Origin: Veillonellaceae bacterium
Lineage (GTDB): Bacteria; Bacillota; Negativicutes; JAAYSF01
Length of the DNA: 64,000 nt
Direction of reading: 5' to 3'
NCBI GenBank assembly: GCA_012523975.1
Contig: JAAYSF010000038.1
Location: forward strand, 8,390-72,389
Part shown: positions 27,214 through 39,105 of the stretch, one piece after another
Numbering within the stretch: the stretch's first letter is position 1
How the letters are laid out: each line of letters starts with the position of its first letter
Made by a program: the position numbers and the translations under genes
Notes under the pieces: generated by a model
Database searches by the model: none
Told to the model about the DNA's origin: nothing
The model's input: only the letters and a program-made list of their open reading frames with translations

Positions 27214-28656
27214 TTGGACAAATTCGATGGTCTAGAGAATATTACCTTGCTTGATCTTATAGCCATTGAAGAGCTACAGGAAATCCAGGATGTCTATGCC
27301 GAAGCACTGGGGATAGCGACGATAATCACCGATCTGGACGGACATCCCATAACCCAGCCGAGCAACTTTTCTAAAGTCTGCAACATGGTACGGGCTACAG
27401 AAAAAGGCTTAGAAAACTGTATGTATTCCGGCAAAGTTATGGGAGCGAAAGCTCATCAATTACTTGTGCCAACCTATCAGAAGTGCCTTAGCTGCGGCTT
27501 CATTGATGCTAGCGCACCTATCACTGTAGACAACAAGCATATCGCCAATTGGGTAGTTGGGCAAATAAACTCAGGTGAAGTCGACGCCGATCATCTTCGG
27601 GCTTACGCTCTGGAAATCGGGGCAGACCCTGACGGATTGGCCAACGCGCTGGACCAAACCCGCGATATGCCGCTGCCGCGTTTCGAAAAGATTCTTCGTT
27701 TATTGTGGCTGCTAGCCCAAAAAATTTCTGCCATGGCCTACAATAATCTGCTTTTATCGCGTGATAACTTGATGCTTAGCCAAGCTGAACGTGAAATTAA
27801 GCAGCTCAATCAGGCTCTTGAAAGTCGTGTATTGGAGTTTGAAGCCGCTAACTCAGATTTACAGCAAACGCTTGCCAAACTCCAAGAAACTCAGGAGCAT
27901 CTTATTCAGCAGGAAAAATTGGCCTCATTAGGCAGTCTGGTTGCCGGCATTGCTCATGAGATAAATACTCCTATCGGTTCAGGTGTAACGGCAGCCTCAT
28001 ATTTGGAACAGGAAACCAATGCCATTGTTAAACAGTTCAAAGCCAATGCATTAAGACGATCCGAACTGGATAGCTATCTTGCTGCTTCTAATGAAGCGAT
28101 AAAAATTATTCTCATAAACCTGAGGAGAGCCTCAGAGCTAATATCCAGTTTTAAAAAAGTAGCGATAGACCGCTCCAGTGATGCCAAACAATTCTTCAAT
28201 ATCAAGAAATACATTGGGGCAGTAATTTTAAGTTTACGACCCCAGCTAAAAAAAGCCAACCACCATATTATTGTCAAATGCGATGATTATATCAACTTAA
28301 ACAGCTATCCTGGTGACTTTTCCCATATTATCACAAACCTAATTATAAATACACTTGTTCACGCTTATCCGTCAGGAAATCAGGGAACCATCACAATTGA
28401 TGTAAGCCACCAAAATGATAAGCTAACACTTATTTATTCAGATGACGGCATCGGCATTCCCGAAAACCACTTACCTAAAATTTTTGAGCCTTTTTTTACA
28501 ACTCGTCGAGGCAATGGCGGTACCGGATTAGGGCTTAATATTATTTACAATATTGTCACCCAAAACCTTAAAGGATCAATAAGCTGCACTAGCCGGCCAA
28601 ATCAAGGAACAAGCTTTACTATAACAATTCCAACCGAAAATGGAGGTACCTTATGA
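27214..28656 (+). CDS. Cytoplasmic sensor histidine kinase with N-terminal PocR sensory domain
   Basis: TTG start 7 nt after AGGAGG. PocR-like domain (conserved Cys pattern KVCNMV ... ENCMYSG ... CLSCGFID), coiled-coil, HisKA (LVAGIAHEINTPIG) and HATPase_c. Confidence 0.85.
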   Translation: MDKFDGLENITLLDLIAIEELQEIQDVYAEALGIATIITDLDGHPITQPSNFSKVCNMVRATEKGLENCMYSGKVMGAKAHQLLVPTYQKCLSCGFIDASAPITVDNKHIANWVVGQINSGEVDADHLRAYALEIGADPDGLANALDQTRDMPLPRFEKILRLLWLLAQKISAMAYNNLLLSRDNLMLSQAEREIKQLNQALESRVLEFEAANSDLQQTLAKLQETQEHLIQQEKLASLGSLVAGIAHEINTPIGSGVTAASYLEQETNAIVKQFKANALRRSELDSYLAASNEAIKIILINLRRASELISSFKKVAIDRSSDAKQFFNIKKYIGAVILSLRPQLKKANHHIIVKCDDYINLNSYPGDFSHIITNLIINTLVHAYPSGNQGTITIDVSHQNDKLTLIYSDDGIGIPENHLPKIFEPFFTTRRGNGGTGLGLNIIYNIVTQNLKGSISCTSRPNQGTSFTITIPTENGGTL

Positions 28657-30224
28657 ACAACCTGGAGGAGGCAGTCGAAGCCGACCAGTCTAATGACTTA
28701 CTTCAATGGGCTGAAGAAACAGAAAGTTTCCAGCCGCAAACAGATAGTTTCTGGAAGATTATGATTATTGATGATGACGAAGCTGTCCATAGTGTTACCA
28801 AATTAGCCCTTCGTCATTTTGTCTTTGAGGGAAAGAAGCTTGAATTTATCAGCGGTTACTCGGCAGCTCAAGCGCGCGATCTTATTGTGAAACATCCCGA
28901 TACTGCCATTCTTCTGCTTGATGTCGTAATGGAAGACGACGATGCTGGTTTAAAAGTGGCGCGCTATATTCGCGAAGAATTAAATAACTCGTTTGTAAGG
29001 ATTATACTTCGGACTGGCCAAGCAGGTCAGGCTCCTGAGGAAAAAGTAATTCTCGAGTATGATATTAATGATTATAAAGAAAAAACCGAACTTACCGCCC
29101 GTAAGCTTTTCACAACGGTAATAGCCGCCCTGCGGGCCTACCGGGATATAATAACAATTGATGCTAACCGCCAGGGCTTGGAAAAAATTATCGAAGCCTC
29201 GGCATCAATCTTTAAAGTTCAATCAATGACCAAATTTGTATCAGGAGTTCTTAGACAACTTGTTTCTATTCTTGGCCTGAATAAGAATTCTTTATACTGC
29301 CAAACTTCCGGTTTTGCTGCAACGAATACCGGCGGCGATTTTCGAATTATGGCTGCAACCGGTGATTTTGAAAAACATATCAACGAAAAAATCGAAACTG
29401 TTTTGCCTCAGGATATTTTAAACGAACTCAATACCGTTTTTACCGCTAAAGAAAGCATGCATTTCGGCAATCGGTTTTTGGGCTATTACCATAGTAATTC
29501 CGGCTCAGAAAGCATTATATATCTTGAAGGACTGCAAACCTTAAACAAAATTCAGAAAGACCTTGTAGTTGTCTTCTTTAATAACGTAAGTACCGCCTTT
29601 GATAACCTTTATCTAAATGAGCAACTGGCTAACGACCAGATGGAAATGCTCTTTACTTTGGGAGAAATGGCCGAAAATCGCTCGCATGAAACCGGCCTCC
29701 ATATAAAAAGAGTAGCTCGTTATTCCCGGCTGTTTGCGCTTAAATACGGTTTAAACGAAGATGAAGCTTCCCGGCTACAGTTAGCTTCATCAATGCATGA
29801 TATCGGTAAACTGGCTATCGAGGATAAAATCCTCAAAAAGCCGGGTCAGCTTACGCTTGAAGAATTTGCTGTAATCAAACGCCATTCGCTCATTGGCTAC
29901 CAAATTCTTAGCAGTTCCAACCGGCCGCTTTTAAAAACGGCAGCCATCATAGCCCTTCAACATCATGAAAAATTTGACGGCACCGGGTATCCTAATAATC
30001 TTTGCGGTGAAAATATCCATATTTATGGGCGAATAACTGCTATTGCCGATGTTTTAGACGCCCTCAGCAGCGACCGGGTTTACCGTCCTGCCTGGCAGAT
30101 TGATAAAGTATTACTATATATTAAAGAACAAAGCGGTAAACATTTTGATCCGCAATTGGTTGATATACTATTTAAAAACCTGGATGAATTCCTTGCAATT
30201 ATGAATGAAACAAGCGAGGACTAA
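28653..30224 (+). CDS. Response regulator with REC domain + middle (GAF-like) region + HD-GYP c-di-GMP phosphodiesterase domain
   Basis: ATGA overlap with the kinase gene. REC (MIIDDDEAV ... LLLDVVME). HD-GYP (HDIGKLAI ... HHEKFDGTGYPNNL). Confidence 0.85.
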   Translation: MNNLEEAVEADQSNDLLQWAEETESFQPQTDSFWKIMIIDDDEAVHSVTKLALRHFVFEGKKLEFISGYSAAQARDLIVKHPDTAILLLDVVMEDDDAGLKVARYIREELNNSFVRIILRTGQAGQAPEEKVILEYDINDYKEKTELTARKLFTTVIAALRAYRDIITIDANRQGLEKIIEASASIFKVQSMTKFVSGVLRQLVSILGLNKNSLYCQTSGFAATNTGGDFRIMAATGDFEKHINEKIETVLPQDILNELNTVFTAKESMHFGNRFLGYYHSNSGSESIIYLEGLQTLNKIQKDLVVVFFNNVSTAFDNLYLNEQLANDQMEMLFTLGEMAENRSHETGLHIKRVARYSRLFALKYGLNEDEASRLQLASSMHDIGKLAIEDKILKKPGQLTLEEFAVIKRHSLIGYQILSSSNRPLLKTAAIIALQHHEKFDGTGYPNNLCGENIHIYGRITAIADVLDALSSDRVYRPAWQIDKVLLYIKEQSGKHFDPQLVDILFKNLDEFLAIMNETSED

Positions 30225-30337
30225 CAGAGCCTCCGGTCCAATATCATGATTTAGAACGATATTTAAATAATTGTCAAGGGACGCTATTTGATACGGACTA
30301 TATTTTAATACCTGACAGAAATGAGTTAAAAAAAATA

Positions 30338-30811
30338 ATGCTTGAAAAACCTTTTGAGATGGATGAGATTGTTGTCGATAATCTTCTTAAAACATATAAC
30401 AATTCTCGTATCTACTATGCGATAGAGTATGTTAAAAACATGAAAAATGTAAATCATTATCCGTCTTATTTGTATAGGAGCATTGAGAGAAATTATGGCC
30501 AACAATGGGCAGATGCTCAATTTTCAAAAAGTAAGAAAAAACGAGAGGCAAAAGAAAAGGCCGCAGAGATTGAAAGAAAATTACGTGAAGATTTAGATAA
30601 AGAAATTGATCTGATTAATAGTAAATCAGATCCAGCTGCATTTCTTGAATTATATAAGTCAAGAAAACAAACGGCTGCTGTTAAACACGCTGAGGCTCCG
30701 ACTAAATCTTTTGTACCGACAAAAGAGATGTTATTGGAAATGTTGTCCTTAACAAAAGACGGTCCGGCTAAAGATAGATTAATTGAAACATATGGCTATT
30801 TACTTAAATAG
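30338..30811 (+). CDS. Hypothetical protein (157 aa; charged/KE-rich C-terminal half)
   Basis: ORF at the island border. No recognisable domain. Confidence 0.5.
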   Translation: MLEKPFEMDEIVVDNLLKTYNNSRIYYAIEYVKNMKNVNHYPSYLYRSIERNYGQQWADAQFSKSKKKREAKEKAAEIERKLREDLDKEIDLINSKSDPAAFLELYKSRKQTAAVKHAEAPTKSFVPTKEMLLEMLSLTKDGPAKDRLIETYGYLLK

Positions 30812-30895
30812 CAAAAAAAGAAAGAAAAAGACTACCGTTTTGTGTTAATAGATTTAAAATAACACAGAATGGTAGTCTTTCTTTTTTACTTTTTT

Positions 30896-31393
30896 TTAAG
30901 CTTTAATATTTGCTTTGCGTTTCTTGGCACAGCTTGGACATCTTGTGCCTTTATATAAGAAGTTTTTTACGAACACGTTCCAGACCTTACCGCAGGTAAC
31001 ATGTTTAATATTTATCCGGCGGGAAAGAGGACAGTATTCACCGGCTATCTCATATTCGCCATTGGTTAATTTAGGAATTCTTTCTCTTAACTGTTCTGTA
31101 TCTAAAGGGATAGCGCCCCGGCCGAAGCATTTAGGACAACGATTACCTTTAACGAGAAAATTATGAGGAAATACTGGCCACTCGTGGCCACAGGTAACAT
31201 GTTTCATATTAACGCGATTATTAATACCACGATATGTTCCTGTTACGATATAATCGGTCCCAACAGCTTCCAAGACCTTAGCCTCGAATGACTGCTGAGT
31301 GTCTTTAAGAGCGCGAAAGTGACGATAATTTTTGCGGTGTTTTAAGCGACGAATCGCGAGTTCTTCTCTTTCGAGATCATCAATGATTGACAT
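30896..31393 (-). CDS. Protein made of 2 tandem copies of a ~55-aa His/Cys zinc-ribbon-like module (short paralog)
   Basis: Modules ...YIVTGTYRGINNRVNMKHVTCGHEWPVFPHNFLVKGNRCPKC and ...YEIAGEYCPLSRRINIKHVTCGKVWNVFVKNFLYKGTRCPSC. SD AAGGAAGG. Loosely resembles DUF4379/PF14311-type zinc-ribbon repeats (from memory). Confidence 0.55.
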   Translation of the reverse strand: MSIIDDLEREELAIRRLKHRKNYRHFRALKDTQQSFEAKVLEAVGTDYIVTGTYRGINNRVNMKHVTCGHEWPVFPHNFLVKGNRCPKCFGRGAIPLDTEQLRERIPKLTNGEYEIAGEYCPLSRRINIKHVTCGKVWNVFVKNFLYKGTRCPSCAKKRKANIKA

Positions 31394-31479
31394 GGTTATG
31401 AATCTACCTTCCTTGCTTTATTAATAAGTGATATAATAAATAAAATAATTGCTGAGAGAAGAGAGGGTGGGGTACATTT

Positions 31480-31659
31480 ATGGGACATGCTAATAATAAA
31501 GAAAAATCTAAGCACCCTGGTAATGCTACCACAGATGAAAAACGTAAAGACGGATCTACGAGTATGCCGCCGGTTCGTTCCGCTCGTTGTGGAGATGACA
31601 AACTTATCATAGTTTTTAATGAGAAATTAGTAGAACATCTCATGTTAATGAAAAAATAG
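31480..31659 (+). CDS. Small basic hypothetical protein (59 aa), divergent from the 2-module gene
   Basis: MGHANNKEKSKHPGNATTDEKRKDGSTSMPPVRSARCGDDKLIIVFNEKLVEHLMLMKK. SD GAGGGTGGGG. Coding-like composition. Preferred over the low-complexity antisense ORF 31404-31643. Confidence 0.3.
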   Translation: MGHANNKEKSKHPGNATTDEKRKDGSTSMPPVRSARCGDDKLIIVFNEKLVEHLMLMKK

Positions 31660-31690
31660 TACGTTGCTATTTTAGCAACAGTAAATATTT

Positions 31691-31730
31691 AACCCCTGAC
31701 ATTATCGTATATTACGGTAGGTCAGGGGTT
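31691..31730. terminator. Perfect 10-bp inverted repeat (aacccctgac ... gtcaggggtt) with a 20-nt loop between convergent island genes
   Basis: Lies downstream of both the plus-strand small ORF and the minus-strand 3-module gene. No U-tract, so the function is uncertain: it could be a terminator or a protein-binding site. Confidence 0.4.
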
Positions 31731-31751
31731 CTTTGCACCCTCACGATTGTT

Positions 31752-32414
31752 TTATTTCGTGGGGGATTTTTTATTTATTGCGGTATTTATTTCCGCTTTT
31801 TCTTTCTTCTTATTTTCAGCGCAGATTGGGCACACCGGATTACTACTAACTAGTGTATTGCCCTTTACTAAGTATTGATGATCGCAGTTATTATCGAGAA
31901 CAACAATATCATCGGAGTAACCGTGACTTAATTCATTGCTAATTATAGTAAAACGATCACTGTGTTTATTTTTGACTCTAATCTTCAAGTCTTCAAGAGT
32001 TGCTTTCCCGCGATTGCATCGAGGACACCTATTGCGTTTTTTACCGACAAAAAATGTTGGCCGTATCATCCATTCTCTTCCACATATGTTGTGCCTCATT
32101 AAAATAGGGGTGTCCCCATCTACGTATTCTCCAAGAACTGAATACTCATTGCCGACTTGATTCAATACTTTCTCTTTAAAAATATCTGCTTCCAAAACTT
32201 TATTTCTTGAATTACATTTAGGACATCTATTTCCGATATTGACAAAGTTAGAAGCTATGACTTCATATTCGTGACCACAAGTGTTGTGTCGCATCAGAAT
32301 TTTTTTATAAGATTTAACATAATCACCAAGGACAGTATATTCGTTACCGACTAACTCATAAACTCTTTTTTTAAAAGATTCTGTCGTATATTTATTTGGT
32401 CTTACTTTTGCCAT
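31752..32414 (-). CDS. Protein made of 3 tandem copies of the same His/Cys zinc-ribbon-like module (long paralog)
   Basis: Modules FKKRVYELVGNEYTVLGDYV ... RHNTCGHEYEVIASNFVNIGNRCPKCNS, FKEKVLNQVGNEYSVLGEYV ... RHNICGREWMIRPTFFVGKKRNRCPRCNR, and a third copy ... CDHQY ... CPICAE. Confidence 0.55.
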   Translation of the reverse strand: MAKVRPNKYTTESFKKRVYELVGNEYTVLGDYVKSYKKILMRHNTCGHEYEVIASNFVNIGNRCPKCNSRNKVLEADIFKEKVLNQVGNEYSVLGEYVDGDTPILMRHNICGREWMIRPTFFVGKKRNRCPRCNRGKATLEDLKIRVKNKHSDRFTIISNELSHGYSDDIVVLDNNCDHQYLVKGNTLVSSNPVCPICAENKKKEKAEINTAINKKSPTK

Positions 32415-32585
32415 ATTGTGAAGACTCCATTTCTCGCTGTTTGAAAGACATATTACGGAGCGAGAATAGGTGTTTTCACATTTTTTTATTATAAATAAAA
32501 ATTTTTATTATATATTTTTTAACCTAGTCGTTTCAAAGTTTTTTTATTTATAAATGAAAATGTCTCAGATCGTCTCGGTATGTAT

Positions 32586-32614
32586 TTGACTTTATTCATG
32601 ATTGTAAGTAAAAC
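32586..32614 (+). promoter_or_regulatory. Candidate sigmaA promoter TTGACT -17- TAAAAC for the 32687 gene
   Basis: Hexamers with ideal spacing 73 nt upstream of the ATG. Confidence 0.4.
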
Positions 32615-32686
32615 TTTTAGCCCCCGGGTATCACTCAACGCAAAACAAATTATGGTCACGCGGACCTTAAACGTAGGAGAATAATT

Positions 32687-33025
32687 ATGACTATTGCACA
32701 AATCAAAACTAAAGCTTTTCATCTTAAAAAGGCAGGTATTGTAGTTATTGAATTAATTGATGATCATGGCATAGAGGTATCATGCTTAATTAATAACACT
32801 AAACGTGTTATTGGTTATATCAAAGCTGAAGACAAGATTCAAGAAATGTTAGTATTGGCTGCTAATACTGTAGTGTCAGCTACTGGTACACAAACTGTTG
32901 TATGCACAGATGTATATAACAGAATGTTTAAGATGGTAAATCATCGCTTAGAAGATGATGCTATCTTTATGGATGTGCTTAAAAATGATGAATATAAAAT
33001 TCATAGCAATGCCTTTAATTGTTAA
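32687..33025 (+). CDS. Hypothetical protein (112 aa)
   Basis: SD GGAG 8 nt upstream. No recognisable family. Confidence 0.5.
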   Translation: MTIAQIKTKAFHLKKAGIVVIELIDDHGIEVSCLINNTKRVIGYIKAEDKIQEMLVLAANTVVSATGTQTVVCTDVYNRMFKMVNHRLEDDAIFMDVLKNDEYKIHSNAFNC

Positions 33026-33193
33026 GTCTTATGTGCACAAAAGATAAAAGAACAATACAAACTAGATGTCCTAAGCACGACAGTAATAAACTGCTTATTT
33101 TTTTATGCTCTGCTTCTGTAGCTATGTACTATCTAGGTATGGCTGCAGTATGGAGTGCATAAGCACTACTAAAAAAAGGGAAGGAGGTCAACT

Positions 33194-33322
33194 ATGAATA
33201 AAAGAAAAACCGCCACTGTAGCAGCAGTGACGGTCATCCTTGTAATTCTAATTGTGTTGCTGTCTCTACACGGCACAGTTAGTATTACAATCTCCAATGT
33301 ATCTGTCTATATAGGCAGATAG
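33194..33322 (+). CDS. Small single-TM peptide (42 aa): basic N-terminus + hydrophobic helix
   Basis: MNKRKTATVAAVTVILVILIVLLSLHGTVSITISNVSVYIGR. Strong SD GGGAAGGAGG. Own terminator at 33330-33372. Confidence 0.45.
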   Translation: MNKRKTATVAAVTVILVILIVLLSLHGTVSITISNVSVYIGR

Positions 33323-33329
33323 GCTGGAG

Positions 33330-33372
33330 CGTCTTGGAGGCGGACGTTAAACGCCTCTTTTCTTTTATTCTA
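33330..33372 (+). terminator. Terminator after the 42-aa peptide gene
   Basis: Stem ggaggcg/cgcctc followed by ttttctttt. Confidence 0.5.
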
Positions 33373-33410
33373 ATCTGCTAAAAATTAAAAGTCAAATTTT
33401 AAAGGAGAGA

Positions 33411-33647
33411 TTGATTATGAATAACTTAGCTATTAACACCACTTCTAAAAAGGTTACTGTTTCTACTGAAAAAGGATTTAAGCTTCCTGGATCTGATAAG
33501 CGTTGGAAGCTAAGAAAAGACGCCCCTGTAAAGATCACGCTAGCAGTAGCCGCTGCCGGCGTTCTTTTATTAGGAGCGTCTCTTCCTGATTGTGATGTCA
33601 CTAGCATCACTACTGGTCCAGTTACCTGGAATCCGCTTGGTAGATAA
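33411..33647 (+). CDS. Hypothetical small protein (78 aa) with one hydrophobic segment
   Basis: SD AAAGGAGAG. Sequence MIMNNLAINTTSKKV ... ITLAVAAAGVLLLGASLPDC ... Confidence 0.45.
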   Translation: MIMNNLAINTTSKKVTVSTEKGFKLPGSDKRWKLRKDAPVKITLAVAAAGVLLLGASLPDCDVTSITTGPVTWNPLGR

Positions 33648-33802
33648 GAGCAACTTCAGTCTCTATTATACCATGTCCTGACATCACGGACAATAAACAA
33701 AAGATGCCGATGCGCCTAGATATAGGTAGCTGTGTAACTCAGCTTTAAAGCATCGTGTCGGCAATCAAACCGATGAAAATACATATAAGGAGCTGTCGTG
33801 CT

Positions 33803-33940
33803 ATGAGTAACAAGAAAGAAAAGTTAGAACGTGCCCGTCAAGTAGTACGGGAAGCCCAAGAGTTAGTTATCAAGTTCAAAGACTTAGATAAGAAAGCAGT
33901 TAAATTGCTCGTGAAGTACAAGCAACGATCTAATGATTAA
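33803..33940 (+). CDS. Small charged helical protein (45 aa; alternative upstream starts would give up to 61 aa)
   Basis: MSNKKEKLERARQVVREAQELVIKFKDLDKKAVKLLVKYKQRSND. AAGGAG sits 11 nt upstream of this ATG. Confidence 0.35.
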   Translation: MSNKKEKLERARQVVREAQELVIKFKDLDKKAVKLLVKYKQRSND

Positions 33941-34085
33941 GCATTGTCACGATCTGGCCAAGCCAATGAACTTGTAATACTAAGTGGCAGCCAAAGGTAG
34001 TAGATAGATCTATTTTTAATAAGTAGATTTAAAACATGCAAACATCAGCGATTGTGGTATAATAATAATTAAGGAGTTGATCTTG

Positions 34086-34400
34086 ATGGAAGAATTATTA
34101 AAAAAAATCATTCAACGTCTTGATAAGATGGAAGCACGGTTTGACGAAGTTAACACACGATTTGACAAAGTTAACACACGATTTGACGAAATCGAAGAGA
34201 ATATGGCGACAAGGGCAGACATTGTTCGCCTTGAGAATAAGATGGACATGCATTTTGGTGCTTTGTATGATGCTAGAGAGGTTCAAGCAGATGTGAACGA
34301 TCAAGTTCGTGATAGCCTGAATAGAATAGAAAAAAGATTAGATCGCGTTTCATTGCGGACCAATCATAATAGTGCAATAGTTGAGAAAATAGCAAAATAA
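34086..34400 (+). CDS. Coiled-coil hypothetical protein (104 aa) containing a duplicated heptad-like peptide
   Basis: MEELLKKIIQRLDKMEARFDEVNTRFDKVNTRFDEIEENMATRADIVRLENKMDMHF ... AAGGAG 9 nt upstream. Terminator follows. Confidence 0.5.
   Translation: MEELLKKIIQRLDKMEARFDEVNTRFDKVNTRFDEIEENMATRADIVRLENKMDMHFGALYDAREVQADVNDQVRDSLNRIEKRLDRVSLRTNHNSAIVEKIAK
34149..34190 (+). repeat. Tandem 21-nt direct repeat inside the coiled-coil gene (gttaacacacgatttgacaaa / gttaacacacgatttgacgaa)
   Basis: Seen directly in the sequence. Encodes VNTRFDK-VNTRFDE. Confidence 0.8.
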
Positions 34401-34415
34401 TTAATTTCTTATTTT

Positions 34416-34458
34416 AAGATCACGATTAAGTTCGTGGTCTTTTTTATTTTTTGTCCTT
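34416..34458 (+). terminator. Terminator after the coiled-coil gene
   Basis: Stem aagatcacga/tcgtggtctt followed by ttttttatttttt. Confidence 0.55.
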
Positions 34459-34566
34459 TGCATGGGACGTTAAAGAGCATGCATTGATGGCCTGTAGGGA
34501 TGGCTAAAGTATCCTATAAATAATAAGAGACACCTGCTGCCAACAGGTGTCAAAAGGAGAATAATT

Positions 34567-35319
34567 ATGACCAACACAGTCAACAACAATTCTCAAGTAC
34601 AGGATATCAAAGAAAGAGCTTCTCGTCAAGCCAAAGCTCGTAAACTTTGGATGGCACGCGCTGCTAAACAAGGTAAAGTGTATACTACCAAAAGAATGCG
34701 TCGGGATCGCAAGGTAAGCACTATCTTAGAGCGGGCAACTTACGCAGGCAAGAAGATGGAACTGGTTTATTCGTCGATTATGATCGATTCCAAAACCGAT
34801 TACAAAACTAAAGAGACTACTGTTACTGTAGTTTTCGGGGAGAGCAAGATGCCCCGGAATCGCATGGTAGAAAAGTTCGGTGAGGAACTCGCGTCCGCTA
34901 CCGATGTTAAATTTGTTCGTGGAACATTGAGAGATGGTGTCTTCACCGGTGACGAAACTTTCGTTGTTCACAAAGCAAGTAATACCAGCATGCCTACAAC
35001 TAAACTGTTCTCTGTTCAGTTTGGCGAGAATGCCGAGTATCTTGCTAATATGATAATTGGCGATGGTATCTGGTATCGCTTGTTTGGTAAGAAACCAATT
35101 ATGATTTCCCGTGTTAAATACGGTAATGAAGAACTTTGGCTTGACGTATTAACTGGCAGACCTGCCGATAGACAAGATTATCAAGTGTCTTCATCAAATG
35201 GTTGGAGACATCTGAAGTTCTACTGCGCATCTCCATCTAATGTTCGTCTTACTACTTGCCTCATGATGGACGTTGCTGACGCCAAACAGACCGGAGGCTC
35301 ACACTTATTACCAACCTAA
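34567..35319 (+). CDS. Hypothetical protein (250 aa), basic N-terminal ~60 aa
   Basis: SD AAAAGGAGAA. Last gene of the island. Ends 10 nt from the purL stop (convergent). Confidence 0.5.
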   Translation: MTNTVNNNSQVQDIKERASRQAKARKLWMARAAKQGKVYTTKRMRRDRKVSTILERATYAGKKMELVYSSIMIDSKTDYKTKETTVTVVFGESKMPRNRMVEKFGEELASATDVKFVRGTLRDGVFTGDETFVVHKASNTSMPTTKLFSVQFGENAEYLANMIIGDGIWYRLFGKKPIMISRVKYGNEELWLDVLTGRPADRQDYQVSSSNGWRHLKFYCASPSNVRLTTCLMMDVADAKQTGGSHLLPT

Positions 35320-35328
35320 CTATTCATT

Positions 35329-38300
35329 CTAGCCAAAATATTTTACACCGGCCGCAAATAACTGCTGATCCTTACAACCCGGTACGTTTTTGGCAACATT
35401 AGCGCCAATCCGTTCAGAGTGGCCCATTTTACCTAAAATTCTGCCGTCAGGACTGGTTATTGCCTCAATCGCGCACATAGAGCCATTGGCATTATACTCA
35501 ACATCATTGCTCGGGTTGCCATCAAGGTCAACATATTGAGCGGCAATTTGTCCGTTTCTGCTTAGCTGTTCAATAAGCTCAGCATCGGCCACAAATCGTC
35601 CCTCGCCATGCGAAAGAGCTATTGTATGAATATCACCAACATCTACATTGCTAAGCCAAGGCGAAAGATTTGATACTATTTTAGTCTGAGCCATGCATGA
35701 TATGTGACGGCCAATCTTGTTATAGGTAAGAGTAGGGCTTTGACTTGAAAGATCGACAATTTCACCGTAAGGAACCAAACCAAGCTTGATGAGAGCCTGG
35801 AATCCGTTGCAAATCCCCAGCATCAGACCGTCCCGCTGTTTAAGCAGGTTGTCAATAGCCTCTTTAATTCGTGGGTTTCTAAACATGGTTGCAATAAACT
35901 TGCCGGAACCATCAGGTTCATCACCGGCACTAAACCCGCCCGGCAGCATAACAATCTGGGCTTGATTTATCTCGGCGGTGATCTTCTCGACAGATTCTTC
36001 AACGGCGCTTGCCGTTAAATTGCGCACAACCAGGGTGCTGACAGCCGCCCCAGCCTGTTCAAAGGCTTTTGCTGAATCATATTCGCAGTTTGTACCGGGG
36101 AAAACCGGGATGAATACCCGCGGCCTGGCGCATTTTATAGAAGACTTACTTGGTTGTGAGCGATAGTATGGCTTATAAGCCGGCTGCGGAACAACTTTTT
36201 CAGTTTGAGTCGGAAAAATTTTTTCAAGCGGCTGCTGCCAAGCAGCCAGCGCATCATCTAAGCTTATCGTACAATTATTTATTAATATGACCGGTTCAGA
36301 TTGAGTTGTTCCAAGCAGGGTGTACTCAATGTCACCCAGCGTCTGGCCCAGGTCGATTTCTTGGCCAAGCTCAAGAATAATTGAGCCGTAATCAGCACTG
36401 AATAATTTATCGCAGGCAACGTCCTCTGCAAATTTCATGCCGATTCTATTGCCGAAACTCATCTTACTTACCGCAGCTGCAATACCGCCAGTCTTAACGG
36501 TGTGAGCGGCCAAAACCTTGCCCGCAGCAATCAGTTCGAAAATTTTGGCATAACCCAGCGACAGTTTATCAAAATTAGGCAGTTCATACTCGTCGCGTTC
36601 AAGCGGTATTAGCACAACCCTGCTGTCCGCTTTTTTAAATTCCGGTGAAATAATATGTTTGGCATTTGCTGTTGCTACAGCAAATGCTACCAGTGTAGGC
36701 GGCACATTCAGGTCCATAAAGGTTCCGGACATGCTGTCTTTACCGCCAATTGCCGGAATCCCCAGCTGCCGCTGAGCATGTAAAGCTCCCAACAAGGCGC
36801 CGAACGGCTTACCCCATTTCCTTTTATCCTGACCGAGCTTTTCAAAATATTCCTGGAGCGTCAAGCGAATTTTATGATAATCGCCGCCCATTGCCACAAC
36901 CTTGGCCGCCGCCTCGACTACCGCATACACCGCACCATGGAAAGGGCTCCAGGTTGTTAATTTAGGATCGTACCCGTGGGTCATAATAGTAGCAGTAGTC
37001 GTTTCGCCCTTTAATACCGGAACCTTTGCCGCCATCCCCTCAGCCGGTGTTAATTGATGCTTGCCGCCGAACGGCATAATTACCGTGCCAGCTCCAATGC
37101 TGCTATCAAACCGCTCAATTAAGCCTTTTTGACTGCAAACATTAATATCCCGGAGATTAGCCAGCCAGGCTTTTTGCAGATCGTTGCCGTCAGCGAGTAT
37201 TTCAGGGTTAACGCGGGAAAAGAAATTAGCAGTCGGTTCAGGCGCCGTTACATAGACGTCAGTTTGCTGTTTTACACCATTGGTATTGAGAAATTCACGG
37301 CTTAAATCAACAATATTTTTGTTGCGCCACATCATCTTAAGGCGTGGCTCAGCTGTAACCTCAGCGACAACTGTTGCCTCAAGATTTTCATCATCGGCTA
37401 AACTAATAAATCTTGCGACATTTTCAGCGGCAACGACAACTGACATTCGCTCCTGTGACTCCGAAATTGCTAGCTCCGTGCCGTCCAAACCTTCATATTT
37501 TTTTGGTATAACATCTAAATTTATTGCCACGCCATCGGTGAGTTCACCGATTGATACCGAGACACCGCCGGCCCCGAAATCGTTACAGCGTTTGATCATT
37601 CTGCTTGCTTCAGGGTTGCGGAACAGCCGCTGAATTTTCCGCTCAGTGGGCGGGTTGCCTTTTTGGACCTCTGAACCGCAGGATGCCAGCGATTCTTCAG
37701 TATGCTCTTTCGAAGAACCAGTTGCACCGCCGCAGCCATCCCGCCCTGTCCGACCGCCAACTAAGATTACAACATCTCCGGCTGCCGGCGCTTCCCTCAC
37801 GACATTGGTCCGAGGCGCCGCAGCTACAACTGCTCCAATTTCCATGCGTTTGGCAATATAGCCTTCGTCATAGATCTCCGTAACATGTCCAGTGGCCAAA
37901 CCAATTTGATTACCGTATGAACTATAACCGGAGGCAGCACCGATGGTTATCTTCCGCTGTGGCAGTTTGCCGGGCAAGGTATCTTCAACCTTGCGGCGCG
38001 GATCGCCACTGCCGGTAATCCGCATGGCCTGATAAACATACGACCGACCTGACAGCGGATCGCGAATACAGCCGCCAAGGCAGGTAGCTGCCCCGCCAAA
38101 TGGTTCAATCTCGGTAGGATGATTATGAGTTTCATTTTTAAACATTATCAGCCATTCTTCACCATGACCGTCGATATCCACATCAACAACAATGCTGCAG
38201 GCGTTTATTTCATCAGACTCATCCAAATCACCCAGCTTGCCCTGTTTCTTTAGTTCTTTCATGCCGATTACAGCAATATCCATCAAGCAAATATCTTTGT

Positions 38301-39105
38301 GATGGGACGTGTAAATTTCGCGGCGAATATCGAGATATTCCTCATAAACCCGCTTGACCGGCTTAGTAAAATGCCCTTGTGCAACTTCGACATTGTTGAT
38401 AACAGTATTAAAGGTGGTATGACGGCAATGATCCGACCAATAAGTATCAATTACGCGAATTTCAGTAATTGTCGGATCACGTTTTTCAGTCTCTTTAAAG
38501 TACTGCTGACAAAATTCAAAGTCGGCAAAACTCATGGCAAGGCTGAGGTCAGCATACAGCACCTTCAATTGATCAGTGGTTTTGTCGATAAATCCAGTTA
38601 ATACTTCAACATTATCCGGAATCTCATGGCTTATCTCAAGGGTTGCCGGTTTAGCCAAAGCCGCCTCCCTTGCCTCGACAGGGTTGATACAGTAATTCTT
38701 AATCTTAATAATCTCCTGCTCGCTCATTACGCCGTACAGAATTATCACTTTTGCCGAGATGACATTCGGCCGGTCTTTTTGAGTAAGGATCTGGATACAC
38801 TGAGCTGCTGAATCTGCCCGTTGGTCGTACTGACCGGGTAAATACTCAATAGCAAAGATGGCTGCATACTTGTCCACAGGCAGTTCTTCATCGTATACAT
38901 TATCAACTGGGGGTTCAGCAAAAATGATATTACGGGCCTTATTATATTCCTCATTATCAAGACCGGCCACGTCATAGCGGTTTACAATCCGAACGCCGGT
39001 CAATCCTGCTATGCCAAGATTTTCTTTGAGATCAGCATATAAACTGCGAGCTTCAACATCAAACCCAGCTTTCTTTTCCACAAAAATGCGTCTAATAGTT
39101 TGCAT
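35329..39105 (-). CDS. purL: Phosphoribosylformylglycinamidine synthase, single-chain large form
   Basis: 1258 aa covering the PurS-like N-terminus, FGAM synthetase domains and C-terminal type-I glutaminase (GICNGFQAL ... HSERIG). Confidence 0.95.
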   Translation of the reverse strand: MQTIRRIFVEKKAGFDVEARSLYADLKENLGIAGLTGVRIVNRYDVAGLDNEEYNKARNIIFAEPPVDNVYDEELPVDKYAAIFAIEYLPGQYDQRADSAAQCIQILTQKDRPNVISAKVIILYGVMSEQEIIKIKNYCINPVEAREAALAKPATLEISHEIPDNVEVLTGFIDKTTDQLKVLYADLSLAMSFADFEFCQQYFKETEKRDPTITEIRVIDTYWSDHCRHTTFNTVINNVEVAQGHFTKPVKRVYEEYLDIRREIYTSHHKDICLMDIAVIGMKELKKQGKLGDLDESDEINACSIVVDVDIDGHGEEWLIMFKNETHNHPTEIEPFGGAATCLGGCIRDPLSGRSYVYQAMRITGSGDPRRKVEDTLPGKLPQRKITIGAASGYSSYGNQIGLATGHVTEIYDEGYIAKRMEIGAVVAAAPRTNVVREAPAAGDVVILVGGRTGRDGCGGATGSSKEHTEESLASCGSEVQKGNPPTERKIQRLFRNPEASRMIKRCNDFGAGGVSVSIGELTDGVAINLDVIPKKYEGLDGTELAISESQERMSVVVAAENVARFISLADDENLEATVVAEVTAEPRLKMMWRNKNIVDLSREFLNTNGVKQQTDVYVTAPEPTANFFSRVNPEILADGNDLQKAWLANLRDINVCSQKGLIERFDSSIGAGTVIMPFGGKHQLTPAEGMAAKVPVLKGETTTATIMTHGYDPKLTTWSPFHGAVYAVVEAAAKVVAMGGDYHKIRLTLQEYFEKLGQDKRKWGKPFGALLGALHAQRQLGIPAIGGKDSMSGTFMDLNVPPTLVAFAVATANAKHIISPEFKKADSRVVLIPLERDEYELPNFDKLSLGYAKIFELIAAGKVLAAHTVKTGGIAAAVSKMSFGNRIGMKFAEDVACDKLFSADYGSIILELGQEIDLGQTLGDIEYTLLGTTQSEPVILINNCTISLDDALAAWQQPLEKIFPTQTEKVVPQPAYKPYYRSQPSKSSIKCARPRVFIPVFPGTNCEYDSAKAFEQAGAAVSTLVVRNLTASAVEESVEKITAEINQAQIVMLPGGFSAGDEPDGSGKFIATMFRNPRIKEAIDNLLKQRDGLMLGICNGFQALIKLGLVPYGEIVDLSSQSPTLTYNKIGRHISCMAQTKIVSNLSPWLSNVDVGDIHTIALSHGEGRFVADAELIEQLSRNGQIAAQYVDLDGNPSNDVEYNANGSMCAIEAITSPDGRILGKMGHSERIGANVAKNVPGCKDQQLFAAGVKYFG

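Follow-up and report, generated by a model that had tools for sequence, protein, structure and literature searches.

What is the AT-rich block of small genes that separates a response-regulator gene from purL, and where did it come from? The window, the whole 64-kb stretch of DNA analysed here, contains such a block of 5.1 kb. The first-pass annotation described it as an AT-rich island of ten genes and considered its content to be defence/anti-defence or phage-remnant cargo, or alternatively a cluster of small sporulation proteins.

Composition and gene content of the island

The island and its two neighbours are as follows.

28653-30224: REC-DUF3369-HD-GYP response regulator (RR), left flank of the island
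30225-35328, no strand: the whole AT-rich island, from the RR stop to the purL stop
35329-39105, minus strand: purL, fused FGAM synthase of 1258 aa, right flank of the island

The GC content is 36.8% in the island versus 44.0% in the whole window. The lowest-GC 5.1-kb stretch in the 64 kb starts at 30101 and has 36.5% GC, while all such stretches have a mean of 43.9% (sd 2.4). In 500-nt windows, GC dips to 0.31-0.39 across 30.0-33.5 kb and 33.75-34.5 kb. Coding sequences (37.8% inside versus 45.6% outside) and non-coding sequences (34.3% versus 39.0%) are both AT-richer in the island, so the drop is not merely due to extra intergenic DNA. GC3 is 0.21-0.36 for ORF1-5, ORF7, and ORF9, versus 0.436 ± 0.033 in 44 flanking genes (z -2.5 to -6.8). 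The island is compositionally foreign, and windowed GC, coding GC, and GC3 statistics all confirm the AT-rich 5.1-kb block. The reported drop from ~45-50% in the flanks to ~30-38% inside is correct for a sharp AT-rich block, but the histidine kinase (HK) and RR genes of the left flank have only 40-42% GC. ORF10 has 43.4% GC and a host-like GC3 of 0.41, and the right end of the island is not AT-rich. The composition of the island is therefore heterogeneous.

All ten ORFs of 42-250 aa exist as first described, and public assemblies annotate them as genes. Their strand order from ORF1 to ORF10 is + - + - + + + + + +.

30338-30811, plus strand: ORF1, 157 aa, all-helical orphan, GC3 0.26
30813-30894, no strand: long bidirectional terminator hairpin between the convergent ORF1 and ORF2, 35-nt arms, 80% complementary
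30896-31393, minus strand: ORF2, 165 aa, two CapR/DUF4379 Zn-finger repeats, without a nuclease domain
31480-31659, plus strand: ORF3, 59 aa, basic orphan, called in public assemblies
31752-32414, minus strand: ORF4, 220 aa, three CapR/DUF4379/DUF723-type Zn-finger repeats, without a nuclease domain
32687-33025, plus strand: ORF5, 112 aa, orphan, the most AT-rich gene, GC3 0.21
33165-33372, plus strand: ORF6 transcript unit, with a 42-aa membrane peptide (33194-33322) and its own terminator (33337-33370)
33198-33395, minus strand: candidate antisense RNA to ORF6, promoter-like sequence at 33395-33367, terminator-like hairpin at 33235-33208
33417-33647, plus strand: ORF7, 76 aa, one hydrophobic segment, called gene
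33803-33940, plus strand: ORF8, 45 aa, basic helical peptide, called gene
34086-34400, plus strand: ORF9, 104 aa, coiled-coil protein, matching phrog_5553 over its full length (E 1e-6)
34416-34441: terminator after ORF9
34567-35319, plus strand: ORF10, 250 aa, apparently what is left of a ~1150-aa gene truncated at its 3' end

The lengths of ORF7, ORF8, and ORF9 (76, 45, and 104 aa) follow the public gene callers, which place their starts slightly later. No relative was found for six or seven of the ORFs, and the phage-family match of ORF9 is weak. The sole match of ORF1 among 5.8 billion proteins is itself, with no phage match and no family match, and its AF2 model is helical with low confidence. 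ORF1 starts 113 nt past the RR stop without an intervening terminator and thus may be co-transcribed with RR. The hairpin between ORF1 and ORF2 has a fold z of about -5 to -6, and its Rfam search gave nothing but spurious miRNA-type hairpin matches. ORF3 has no homologue and no family match; hairpins lie 3' of it at 31662-31680 and 31693-31728. ORF5 has no family match and no phage match, and its translation-initiation region is the same as that of ORF10 over 17 identical nucleotides. ORF7 has no Pfam match beyond a sub-threshold one to DUF6893, and ORF8 has no family match. ORF9 also matches XhlA and HSBP1, both below threshold, and contains a 21-nt tandem repeat at 34135-34176.

The island contains 11 terminator-like sites, versus 4.4 ± 2.3 in shuffled sequences. 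Most ORFs keep strong Shine-Dalgarno sequences and terminators, and no frameshift or internal stop is present in the island ORFs, the truncation of ORF10 aside. Decay is therefore not demonstrated for ORFs other than ORF10.

Genes for mobility are missing, as originally noted. Domain searches found no integrase, recombinase, or transposase domain, and no tRNA is present anywhere in the 64-kb window. No direct repeats beyond chance flank the island. With neither a recombinase, a tRNA target, nor att direct repeats, the island was rejected as a prophage or integrative element. Nor can it be called plasmid-derived from genes of its own, as no replication initiator or partition gene is found in the 64-kb window; Rep3 and ParA are seen only on a related contig (L174, below).

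The RR-purL junction in relatives

In a syntenic relative (L054/L092), purL and RR are 80% and 82% identical to those of the window, and all flanking genes are kept on both sides. Its RR-purL junction is 1.76 kb long and contains one gene of normal GC, coding for a 457-aa Na+-symporter-like transporter. None of the ten island ORFs is at the junction of this relative, which is the sole syntenic one among the matches listed. Closer relatives carrying the island may exist; the matches listed omitted even the window's own species. The expectation that the same ten genes would not be found at this junction in relatives is thus borne out by the one syntenic relative examined. Atypical composition combined with absence from a syntenic relative, here a single one, characterizes a horizontally acquired island. 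The island is identical in 13 metagenome contigs, all at least 99.87% identical, and its conservation is confined to one near-clonal population.

These data bear on the sporulation alternative, in which the ORFs code for small proteins native to a spore-forming Negativicutes lineage and specific to sporulation or stress, and are AT-rich merely as short, weakly expressed genes. The lineage probably sporulates, because a SpoIID gene is located 8 kb from the island, and short lineage-specific genes are frequently AT-rich. Still, the genes are missing from the syntenic relative, the coding GC of the island is 8 points under that of neighbouring genes, and three ORFs are related only to phage or plasmid-like DNA. 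In Pfam and NCBIfam, none of the ten ORFs matched a sporulation family, whether SASP, coat, or other. Such an origin is hardly credible.

Zn-finger proteins and a candidate type I toxin

ORF2 and ORF4 belong to the CapR/DUF4379 treble-clef domain based on the Pfam gathering score. ORF2 scores 38.9 bits for CapR (cutoff 24.2) and 29.5 bits for DUF4379 (cutoff 24.5), and ORF4 scores 28.3 bits for DUF4379 (cutoff 24.5). The repeats are ~65 aa long and in tandem. Five carry the metal-ligand pairs H-x2-C ... C-P-x-C, with D replacing H in the third repeat of ORF4, and the pairs are separated by the distance expected for a CapR/DUF4379 repeat, about 20-26 residues. The two proteins are just 38% identical to each other, which indicates no recent duplication.

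The relatives of ORF4 are longer. Its 150 homologues are mostly 310-385 aa with four repeats, and the full-length ones that were read (e.g., P0005, P0012, P0018, P0030, P0055, and P0056) have a C-terminal Vsr-like nuclease domain, which carries the Pfam label DUF2726 in about 17 of 120 homologues listed. ORF4 matches phrog_559 with an E-value of 4e-36, and the matches of ORF2 to phrog_559/681, annotated as "endonuclease", span the DNA-binding part only. No nuclease remnant was detected in the window by tblastn with six full-length homologues and their C-terminal 125 residues. Both proteins end after the repeats and were rejected as homing endonucleases of the Vsr/DUF2726, HNH, or T5orf172 type; the missing catalytic domain makes homing impossible.

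The Zn-finger family is seen in 349 phage records, where its members bear the annotation of homing endonuclease (HNH, Vsr, or Hef-like), and the closest ORF4 homologues are on phage-like contigs. The Vsr/HNH homing endonucleases of Staphylococcus, Enterococcus, Lactococcus, and Bacillus phages, including the "Hef-like" ones of AR9/PBS1, are free-standing or intron-associated, and their genes often occur several per genome, in tandem. Their DNA-binding module is 35-41% identical over ~90% of ORF4; unlike them, ORF2 and ORF4 miss the catalytic domain. CapR/DUF723 repeats are DNA-binding modules in homing endonucleases (PMC10448857). Judging from their sequences, ORF2 and ORF4 appear to be nuclease-less CapR-type Zn-finger DNA-binding proteins of homing-endonuclease lineage.

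A nuclease-free CapR domain of the Vibrio cholerae PLE satellite acts as a repressor (PMC8096241). CapR likewise has no nuclease domain and belongs to the same Zn-finger family as ORF2 and ORF4. The relatives of CapR are tied to T5orf172/GIY-YIG enzymes of vibriophages, whereas those of ORF4 are from Firmicutes phages and mostly have a C-terminal DUF2726/Vsr-like domain or are annotated as HNH. By analogy with CapR, ORF2 and ORF4 might be repressors.

ORF6 is of a different kind. Its RNA has a minimum free energy of -77.7 kcal/mol (z -7.3), with 0 of 200 shuffles equally stable, and is the most structured 200-nt window across 28-38 kb. A 12-bp long-range helix pairs codons 2-5 with the U-run after the terminator. 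On the minus strand, the fold has a z of -6.4, and the candidate antisense RNA has a promoter-like sequence matching the sigma-70 consensus at 10 of 12 positions and an 11-bp hairpin with a T-run.

Type I toxin genes are expected to encode a small hydrophobic peptide on a structured mRNA, as ORF6 does. Type I modules (hok/sok, fst/RNAII, txpA/ratA, bsrG/SR4, and aapA/isoA) are from plasmids and prophages. ORF6 resembles them in its peptide of ~40 aa, which has a basic N-terminus and a single hydrophobic helix, in its compact and highly structured mRNA with 5'-3' long-range pairing beside the start codon, and in its putative convergent antisense transcript and mobile-element-derived setting. 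It differs from them in that it matches no known toxin family and no Rfam antitoxin RNA. Predicted structure and consensus motifs make ORF6 a candidate type I toxin.

Could these genes form an active defence/anti-defence islet, whose small proteins act jointly against phages or host immunity? An AT-rich, mobile-derived block of small orphan genes that each have a promoter and a terminator is typical of such cargo, CapR-type proteins interfere with phage gene expression (PMC8096241), and the island is fixed and intact in 13 of the 13 contigs examined. However, PADLOC-DB 2.0 gave no credible match, the best being coiled-coil noise for ORF9 (E >= 5e-4), with E > 0.01 for the others. None of the ORFs codes for an identifiable effector, such as a nuclease, NTPase, protease, TIR, or Sir2 protein, and the largest gene of the island is a truncated stump. 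The limitation of the island to one near-clonal population leaves no co-occurrence comparison. The proposed defence function is therefore distinctly improbable.

ORF10, its full-length relatives, and the origin of the island

An exhaustive HMMER search of 1.84 billion representatives revealed only two true relatives of ORF10: P0134 (1154 aa, E 9e-29) and P0136 (1132 aa, E 1e-7). Both align to ORF10 via their first ~215 residues only. The homologous part of ORF10 is residues 40-243 (34684-35295), corresponding to residues 14-216 of P0134. Only 7 codons follow before the stop, which is 9 bp away from that of purL. The rest of the ~1150-aa gene is absent from the 64-kb window. The match to only the N-terminal fifth and the stop at the right edge of the island indicate that ORF10 is apparently 3'-truncated.

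YonO of the Bacillus prophage SPbeta is a single-chain two-barrel RNA polymerase (PMC5467207, PMC2919709). Two-barrel polymerases have eight invariants: D, R, and K in barrel 1, and R-x-P and D-x-D-x-D in barrel 2 (PMC2919709). P0134 and P0136 have, in this order, the motifs D-G ... R-x4-K ... R-x-P ... D-[YF]-D-x-D. In hhalign, all eight can be aligned with invariant residues of the YonO family (D249/G250, R266/K271, R492/P494, and D535/D537/D539), at an E-value of 0.27 that is not significant. P0134 matches the YonO family profile phrog_8308 (E 8e-5) and P0136 does not; neither has a match in PDB by sequence. ORF10 itself was rejected as a YonO-like polymerase. It ends before the first candidate invariant, D277 of P0134, and so is not a polymerase, whatever its family.

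P0134 is encoded on L174, a 62-kb Rep3/ParA contig. The gene order there is Rep3, ParA, a 176-aa protein gene, a Zn-finger gene (minus strand), six small ORFs (plus strand), and the 1154-aa gene (plus strand). The Zn-finger protein of L174 (142 aa, two repeats) has the same layout as ORF2 and is 48% identical to it (134 bits, E 7e-40). This is the best ORF2 match among all those retrieved; the retrieved ORF4 homologues score no more than 111 bits with ORF2, and 30 IMG/VR loci are at most 40% identical to it. In both the island and L174, ~3.2 kb separate the Zn-finger gene from the large gene, with the same order and orientation. At the position analogous to ORF6, L174 has a 40-codon ORF in an equally structured RNA (z -7.1). 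No similarity to the Rep3/ParA of L174 was found for ORF1, and reading it as a rep fragment is not supported.

The link between the island and L174 consists of two gene families only (ORF2/ORF4 and ORF10). Zn-finger genes of this kind are promiscuous and selfish, and chance could have placed them beside the large gene twice. L174 has 48% GC versus 31-38% for most of the island. This mismatch, together with the host-like GC3 of ORF10, suggests that the island may be a mosaic, assembled in more than one acquisition.

Alternatively, the RR-purL junction might be a variable hotspot where unrelated small genes, free-standing homing-endonuclease-derived ones and fast-evolving or de novo orphans, were gathered piecemeal, with ORF10 a separately captured fragment. 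The 3' flank of purL differs in every relative examined: besides the transporter gene of L054, Propionispira has a potABCD-like ABC transporter there, and in Propionispora the flank holds an integrase, a tRNA-like sequence, and prophage genes. The contrast in GC3 between ORF1-5 and ORF10, the divergence of ORF2 from ORF4, and the abundance of ORFs without relatives are also consistent with piecemeal gathering. Yet this would leave to chance that ORF2-like and ORF10-like genes are together in L174 in conserved order, orientation, and spacing, that the Zn-finger gene there is the closest ORF2 relative retrieved, and that an ORF of ~40 codons in highly structured RNA lies between both genes in either place. 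We consider a hotspot rather unlikely.

Probably, the island was left by a plasmid-like or phage-plasmid-like element: a lineage-specific fragment, immobile today, that lodged between RR and purL and was cut down by deletion. It is most likely a common sort of genomic scar and not a new system. The phage-remnant reading of the first-pass annotation is right in that the content is of mobile-element type (phage-borne Zn-fingers, ORF10 as a truncated copy of a gene known otherwise from a Rep3/ParA element, and the phage-family match of ORF9), but a plasmid or phage-plasmid remnant fits better. Its general picture of a foreign block with mobile-element-type content is retained, and the defence and sporulation roles are not. 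Like decayed mobile elements (prophage or plasmid remnants, "genomic islets"), the island has a foreign composition, a lineage-specific presence in synteny, mostly orphan small genes, and a truncated large gene at its edge, without integrase or att sites. It differs from such remnants in general in its source. The L174-type element (Rep3/ParA plus a ~1150-aa orphan) has no match in INPHARED phages, PLSDB plasmids, or IMG/VR, and this source element type, represented by L174, is itself undescribed.

Probably, a larger element that carried the large gene at full length, along with genes for replication and partition, integrated or recombined into the junction, and one or more deletions then removed the remainder. 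The right-hand deletion would have reached the 3' end of purL and perhaps also took the transporter gene seen in the relative. ORF10 would be a non-catalytic stump, and the remaining small ORFs were probably accessory genes of the element. ORF2 and ORF4, if functional at all, are probably sequence-specific DNA binders, repressor-like as CapR. ORF6 and the candidate antisense RNA, if functional at all, probably constitute a type I toxin-antitoxin addiction module, and such a module, if real, would explain the retention and fixation of the fragment.

Composition and setting of the island

The island lies at 30225-35328 of the window, between the gene for a REC-DUF3369-HD-GYP response regulator (RR) and a 1258-aa purL. 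The source is an uncultured Negativicutes annotated as 'Veillonellaceae bacterium' (locus tags GX348_04910-04950). The AT-rich block of 5.1 kb reported in the first-pass annotation is real: GC content is 36.8% here and 44.0% over the 64-kb window, and in the windowed GC profile the 5.1-kb window with the lowest GC of all begins at 30101. The described drop holds inside the island, but the left flank has 40-42% GC, not 45-50%, and the ORF10 end is host-like (43.4% GC, GC3 0.41). Coding GC is 37.8% within the island and 45.6% outside, and non-coding GC is 34.3% and 39.0%, respectively; thus the dip is not merely extra intergenic DNA. GC3 of ORF1-5, 7 and 9 is 0.21-0.36, compared with 0.436 +/- 0.033 for 44 neighbouring genes. 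The composition of the island is foreign.

All ten ORFs are called as genes in public assemblies. Their strands, from ORF1 to ORF10, are + - + - + + + + + +. Terminator-like hairpins are enriched (11, against 4.4 +/- 2.3 in shuffles), and a bidirectional hairpin with 35-nt arms separates ORF1 from ORF2. As had been noted, there is no integrase or transposase: the island ORFs contain no recombinase or transposase domain and no other mobility or replication gene. No tRNA was found within the window, and no direct repeat flanks the island. The 17-nt translation-initiation region AGGAGAATAATTATGAC is identical ahead of ORF5 (32675-32691) and ORF10 (34555-34571), 1.9 kb apart. This identity is unlikely to arise by chance in 7.5 kb, and could come from common origin or recombination.

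The locus is present in 13 contigs from different samples at 99.87-100% identity, with the island intact in each; it is thus fixed in a near-clonal population. No contig differs by more than 11 SNPs. Two synonymous changes and one non-synonymous change fall in ORF10, too few for dN/dS.

Among the matches listed, which do not cover the window's own species so that closer relatives may exist, the sole syntenic relative is a Negativicutes MAG, recovered twice (L054 and L092). Identity to the window is 80% for its purL and 82% for its response regulator. All flanking genes are kept: SpoIID, VanW, Mur ligase, LarA, LPG synthase, HK and RR to one side of the junction, and purL, LysR, AdoMetDC and an HD protein to the other. 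None of the ten island ORFs is present at its RR-purL junction. The junction is 1.76 kb with a single gene of normal GC (L054:8363-9736) for a 457-aa transporter, which looks like a Na+-dependent symporter. The transporter gene is absent across the whole 64-kb window, and tblastn and blastn detect no leftover of it in the island. The proposal of horizontally acquired, phage-remnant-like cargo finds partial support, and can be made more precise as a fragment of a decayed plasmid-like or phage-plasmid-like element.

Among more distant relatives, Propionispira has an ABC transporter in the purL 3' flank. Since the flank differs among L054/L092, Propionispira and Propionispora, it is generally variable. 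In a further Negativicutes genome, that of a Propionispora sp. (L012:14012-16420), insertion has likewise taken place there: a tRNA-like sequence, read from an ORF translation, is directly downstream of purL and is adjoined by a 421-aa tyrosine-recombinase-like integrase gene and high-GC prophage-like genes. In the window, the stops of ORF10 and purL are convergent and 9 bp apart (35317-35331), with no terminator hairpin between them. Therefore, purL seems to have lost its native 3' flank. The transcripts of ORF10 and purL would overlap or read into one another.

Zinc-finger proteins without a nuclease domain

ORF2 (165 aa) contains two repeats of ~65 residues, and ORF4 (220 aa) contains three. 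Both pass the Pfam thresholds for CapR and/or DUF4379, and every repeat has the metal-ligand pattern H/D-x2-C ... C-P-x-C. The PHROG families that they hit, 'HNH endonuclease' and 'endonuclease', are matched in their DNA-binding portion. Relatives were found by tblastn in 349 phage records, chiefly of Staphylococcus, Enterococcus, Streptococcus, Lactococcus and Bacillus phages, where their annotation is HNH, Vsr-type or 'Hef-like' homing endonuclease and a single genome often has several. Whole-island blastn against phages gives a sole match, 100 nt inside ORF4.

ORF4 has 150 database homologues, most of them 310-385 aa long with four repeats. A C-terminal Vsr-like nuclease domain of ~110 aa is seen in six of the eight homologue sequences read, and about 17 of 120 listed homologues bear the Pfam label DUF2726 for it. 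This domain is missing from both ORF2 and ORF4. A decayed nuclease domain was also sought downstream of either ORF, and no remnant is detectable. ORF2 and ORF4 are only 38% identical to each other, which excludes a recent duplication. The nearest homologues of ORF4 are located in phage-like contigs. Such genes accumulate in large phage genomes: one of these contigs, of 260 kb and with a T4-type portal (L207), carries five CapR/DUF723-type Zn-finger repeat genes (L207:7287-12987, 224-649 aa), four of them consecutive.

CapR/DUF723-type Zn-finger repeats are modular DNA-binding parts of phage T5orf172 endonucleases (PMC10448857). A direct precedent is CapR, encoded by the PLE satellite of V. cholerae: it is a nuclease-free derivative of this homing-endonuclease DNA-binding domain and represses a phage capsid operon (PMC8096241). 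ORF2 and ORF4 likewise lack the nuclease and belong to the same homing-endonuclease DNA-binding lineage. It can be proposed that they act today as CapR-like DNA binders. They add two more cases of homing-endonuclease DNA-binding modules without their nuclease, and should not be annotated as endonucleases.

ORF10, its large relatives and the Rep3/ParA contig

In the word-indexed search, ORF10 finds itself alone. Exhaustive HMMER against 1.84 billion representatives reveals two proteins of ~1150 aa, P0134 (1154 aa, E 9e-29) and P0136 (1132 aa, E 1e-7). The 774-aa P0135 also comes up, as a false positive; it is an ankyrin-repeat protein matched over a short low-complexity stretch. P0134 and P0136 align with ORF10 through their first ~215 residues only, and continue for ~900 residues further. 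The homology covers residues 40-243 of ORF10. Seven codons without similarity come next, and the gene then stops, 9 bp away from the stop of purL, which is on the other strand. On these grounds ORF10 is seen as truncated. It resembles the 5' fifth of a large gene, severed exactly at the right edge of the island; no other part of a P0134-type gene is present in the window. ORF10 should not be annotated as a complete gene. The tblastn alignment of ORF10 continues weakly past the stop into the last purL codons (SHLLPT*LFILAKIF against ERILESLTLGASKIF, p about 0.002-0.007). This could be a microhomology deletion junction, but the alignment is too weak for such a claim.

The P0134 gene (L174:10001-13465) is on a 62-kb contig, ERR12379741_51066, of which 23.5 kb was read (L174:1-23465). 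Along it come the genes for a Rep3 initiator and ParA, a 176-aa gene, a CapR/DUF4379 gene of 142 aa on the other strand, six small ORFs, and then P0134. Many small same-strand ORFs follow, dozens of them orphan, including a Phage_pRha/ANT antirepressor. Judged from these 23.5 kb, the L174 type would be either a plasmid or a phage-plasmid. Neither P0134 nor L174-type DNA is matched in INPHARED phages, PLSDB plasmids or IMG/VR.

The 142-aa protein is the best match of ORF2 among the sequences compared (134 bits, 48% identity, E 7e-40); the ORF4 homologues compared reach at most 111 bits. It has the same two-repeat layout, and the repeat ends are near-identical. At 30 IMG/VR loci, identity to ORF2 is at most 40%, and no other island gene is present. 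The 48% identity across two elements argues that nuclease-less Zn-finger proteins of this sort have a function of their own.

The island shares its gene order with the Rep3/ParA contig. In both, the Zn-finger gene is ~3.2 kb upstream of the large gene and points away from it, and the gap is filled by small plus-strand ORFs. No L174 counterpart of any further island ORF was detected. The island probably originates from an L174-related plasmid-like or phage-plasmid-like element, which was inserted between RR and purL and of which deletion then left a 5.1-kb internal fragment. The genes would have arrived as parts of a single element, and deletion would have truncated ORF10. As the main alternative, the genes could have accumulated piecemeal at a variable junction. 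The island is heterogeneous in composition, and just two gene families tie it to L174, which speaks for piecemeal accumulation; we regard this alternative as rather unlikely. With an origin from one L174-related element, the odd AT-rich block in this genome is explained as a mobile-element scar. Current understanding is not overturned. On this reading the island is a cryptic remnant of a mobile element, which is a known kind, and its homing-endonuclease DNA-binding proteins are domesticated. The greater interest is in the source element and its large protein, both outside the window.

P0134 weakly matches phrog_8308, with E 8e-5. YonO of SPbeta matches the same family at full length with E 0, which identifies phrog_8308 as the YonO family. 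P0134 and P0136 (L175:393-3791) have in common, in order, D277-G, R312-x4-K317, R521-x-P523 and D586-x-D588-x-D590, that is, the pattern D-G / R-x4-K / R-x-P / D-[YF]-D-x-D. These residues are placed by hhalign on the YonO-family invariants D249-G250, R266/K271, R492/P494 and D535/D537/D539. Two-barrel RNA polymerases have this eight-residue pattern as their signature (PMC2919709, PMC5467207). The profile-profile comparison of P0134/P0136 with YonO does not reach significance (E 0.27), and sequence searches of the PDB with the large protein returned nothing. The P0134-type family consists of three clusters only among 1.84 billion representative proteins. The ~1150-aa orphan proteins are candidate YonO-like polymerases, which would be highly divergent and encoded on a Rep3/ParA element. 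Whichever family they belong to, ORF10 stops before the first of the eight residues. L174, with Rep3/ParA and the ~1150-aa protein, offers a way into a type of element that is very rare. The yonO polymerase gene is itself a homing-endonuclease target; in several SPbeta-like phages (H36-H40), yonO is annotated in two pieces with a gene between them, a GIY-YIG nuclease in one phage.

ORF6 and the orphan ORFs

ORF6 is in the most structured 200 nt of 28-38 kb (z -7.2 to -7.3), and the following features are predicted here.

33165-33372, plus strand: ORF6 RNA, encoding a 42-aa peptide with a basic N-terminus and one hydrophobic helix
33198-33395, minus strand: candidate antisense RNA, fold z -6.4

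The predicted ORF6 transcript contains four hairpins, enclosed by a 12-bp helix that pairs codons 2-5 with the post-terminator U-run. The opposite strand brackets ORF6 with a sigma-70-like promoter matching at 10/12 positions (33395-33367) and a hairpin with a T-run (33235-33208). At the analogous position of the Rep3/ParA contig (L174:8150-8370), a 40-codon ORF lies in equally structured RNA (z -7.1). ORF6 has no match in protein or RNA family searches. Its anatomy is similar to that of type I toxin-antitoxin loci of plasmids and prophages, and by this analogy ORF6 is a candidate for such a locus; it might instead be a structured non-coding RNA. As an addiction module, it might have favoured retention of the island.

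More speculatively, the island could be the footprint of an undescribed Rep3/ParA plasmid-like or phage-plasmid family, with the ~1150-aa protein as its hallmark; this protein would be a single-chain two-barrel RNA polymerase of YonO type that has diverged extremely far. The retained pieces would then be modules that still function, not debris: nuclease-free CapR-like binders, a type I toxin-like structured RNA or peptide, and the N-terminal stump. We consider this possible but tentative.

For ORF1, 3, 5, 6, 7 and 8, none of the four libraries gives a family match, and their clusters at 90% identity contain members from this population only. ORF1, ORF5, ORF9 and ORF10 have no match in IMG/VR. 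In INPHARED phages, ORF1, ORF5 and ORF10 have none and ORF9 has just two marginal ones (E 0.03). Whole-island blastn against PLSDB gives no match. PADLOC returned nothing credible, and the suggested defence or anti-defence cargo is not borne out; an active islet of this kind, with no positive support, is improbable. Native sporulation proteins, the other alternative raised from the sequence, are likewise unsupported and very improbable.

ORF1 was considered as the 3' end of a rep gene, from what we took to be a motif of initiator C-termini. This was dropped: BLASTP against the L174 Rep3 and its 176-aa neighbour was nil, as was PDB. Single-sequence AlphaFold2 models of ORF10 (pLDDT 45) and ORF1 (pLDDT 53) are both too poor for a fold search.

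ORF9 is a coiled-coil protein with a full-length match to phrog_5553, a phage family of unknown function (E 1e-6); XhlA-like matches are sub-threshold. It contains a 21-nt tandem duplication (34135-34176), 90% identical and in perfect register, which encodes the repeated heptads RFDEVNT/RFDKVNT.
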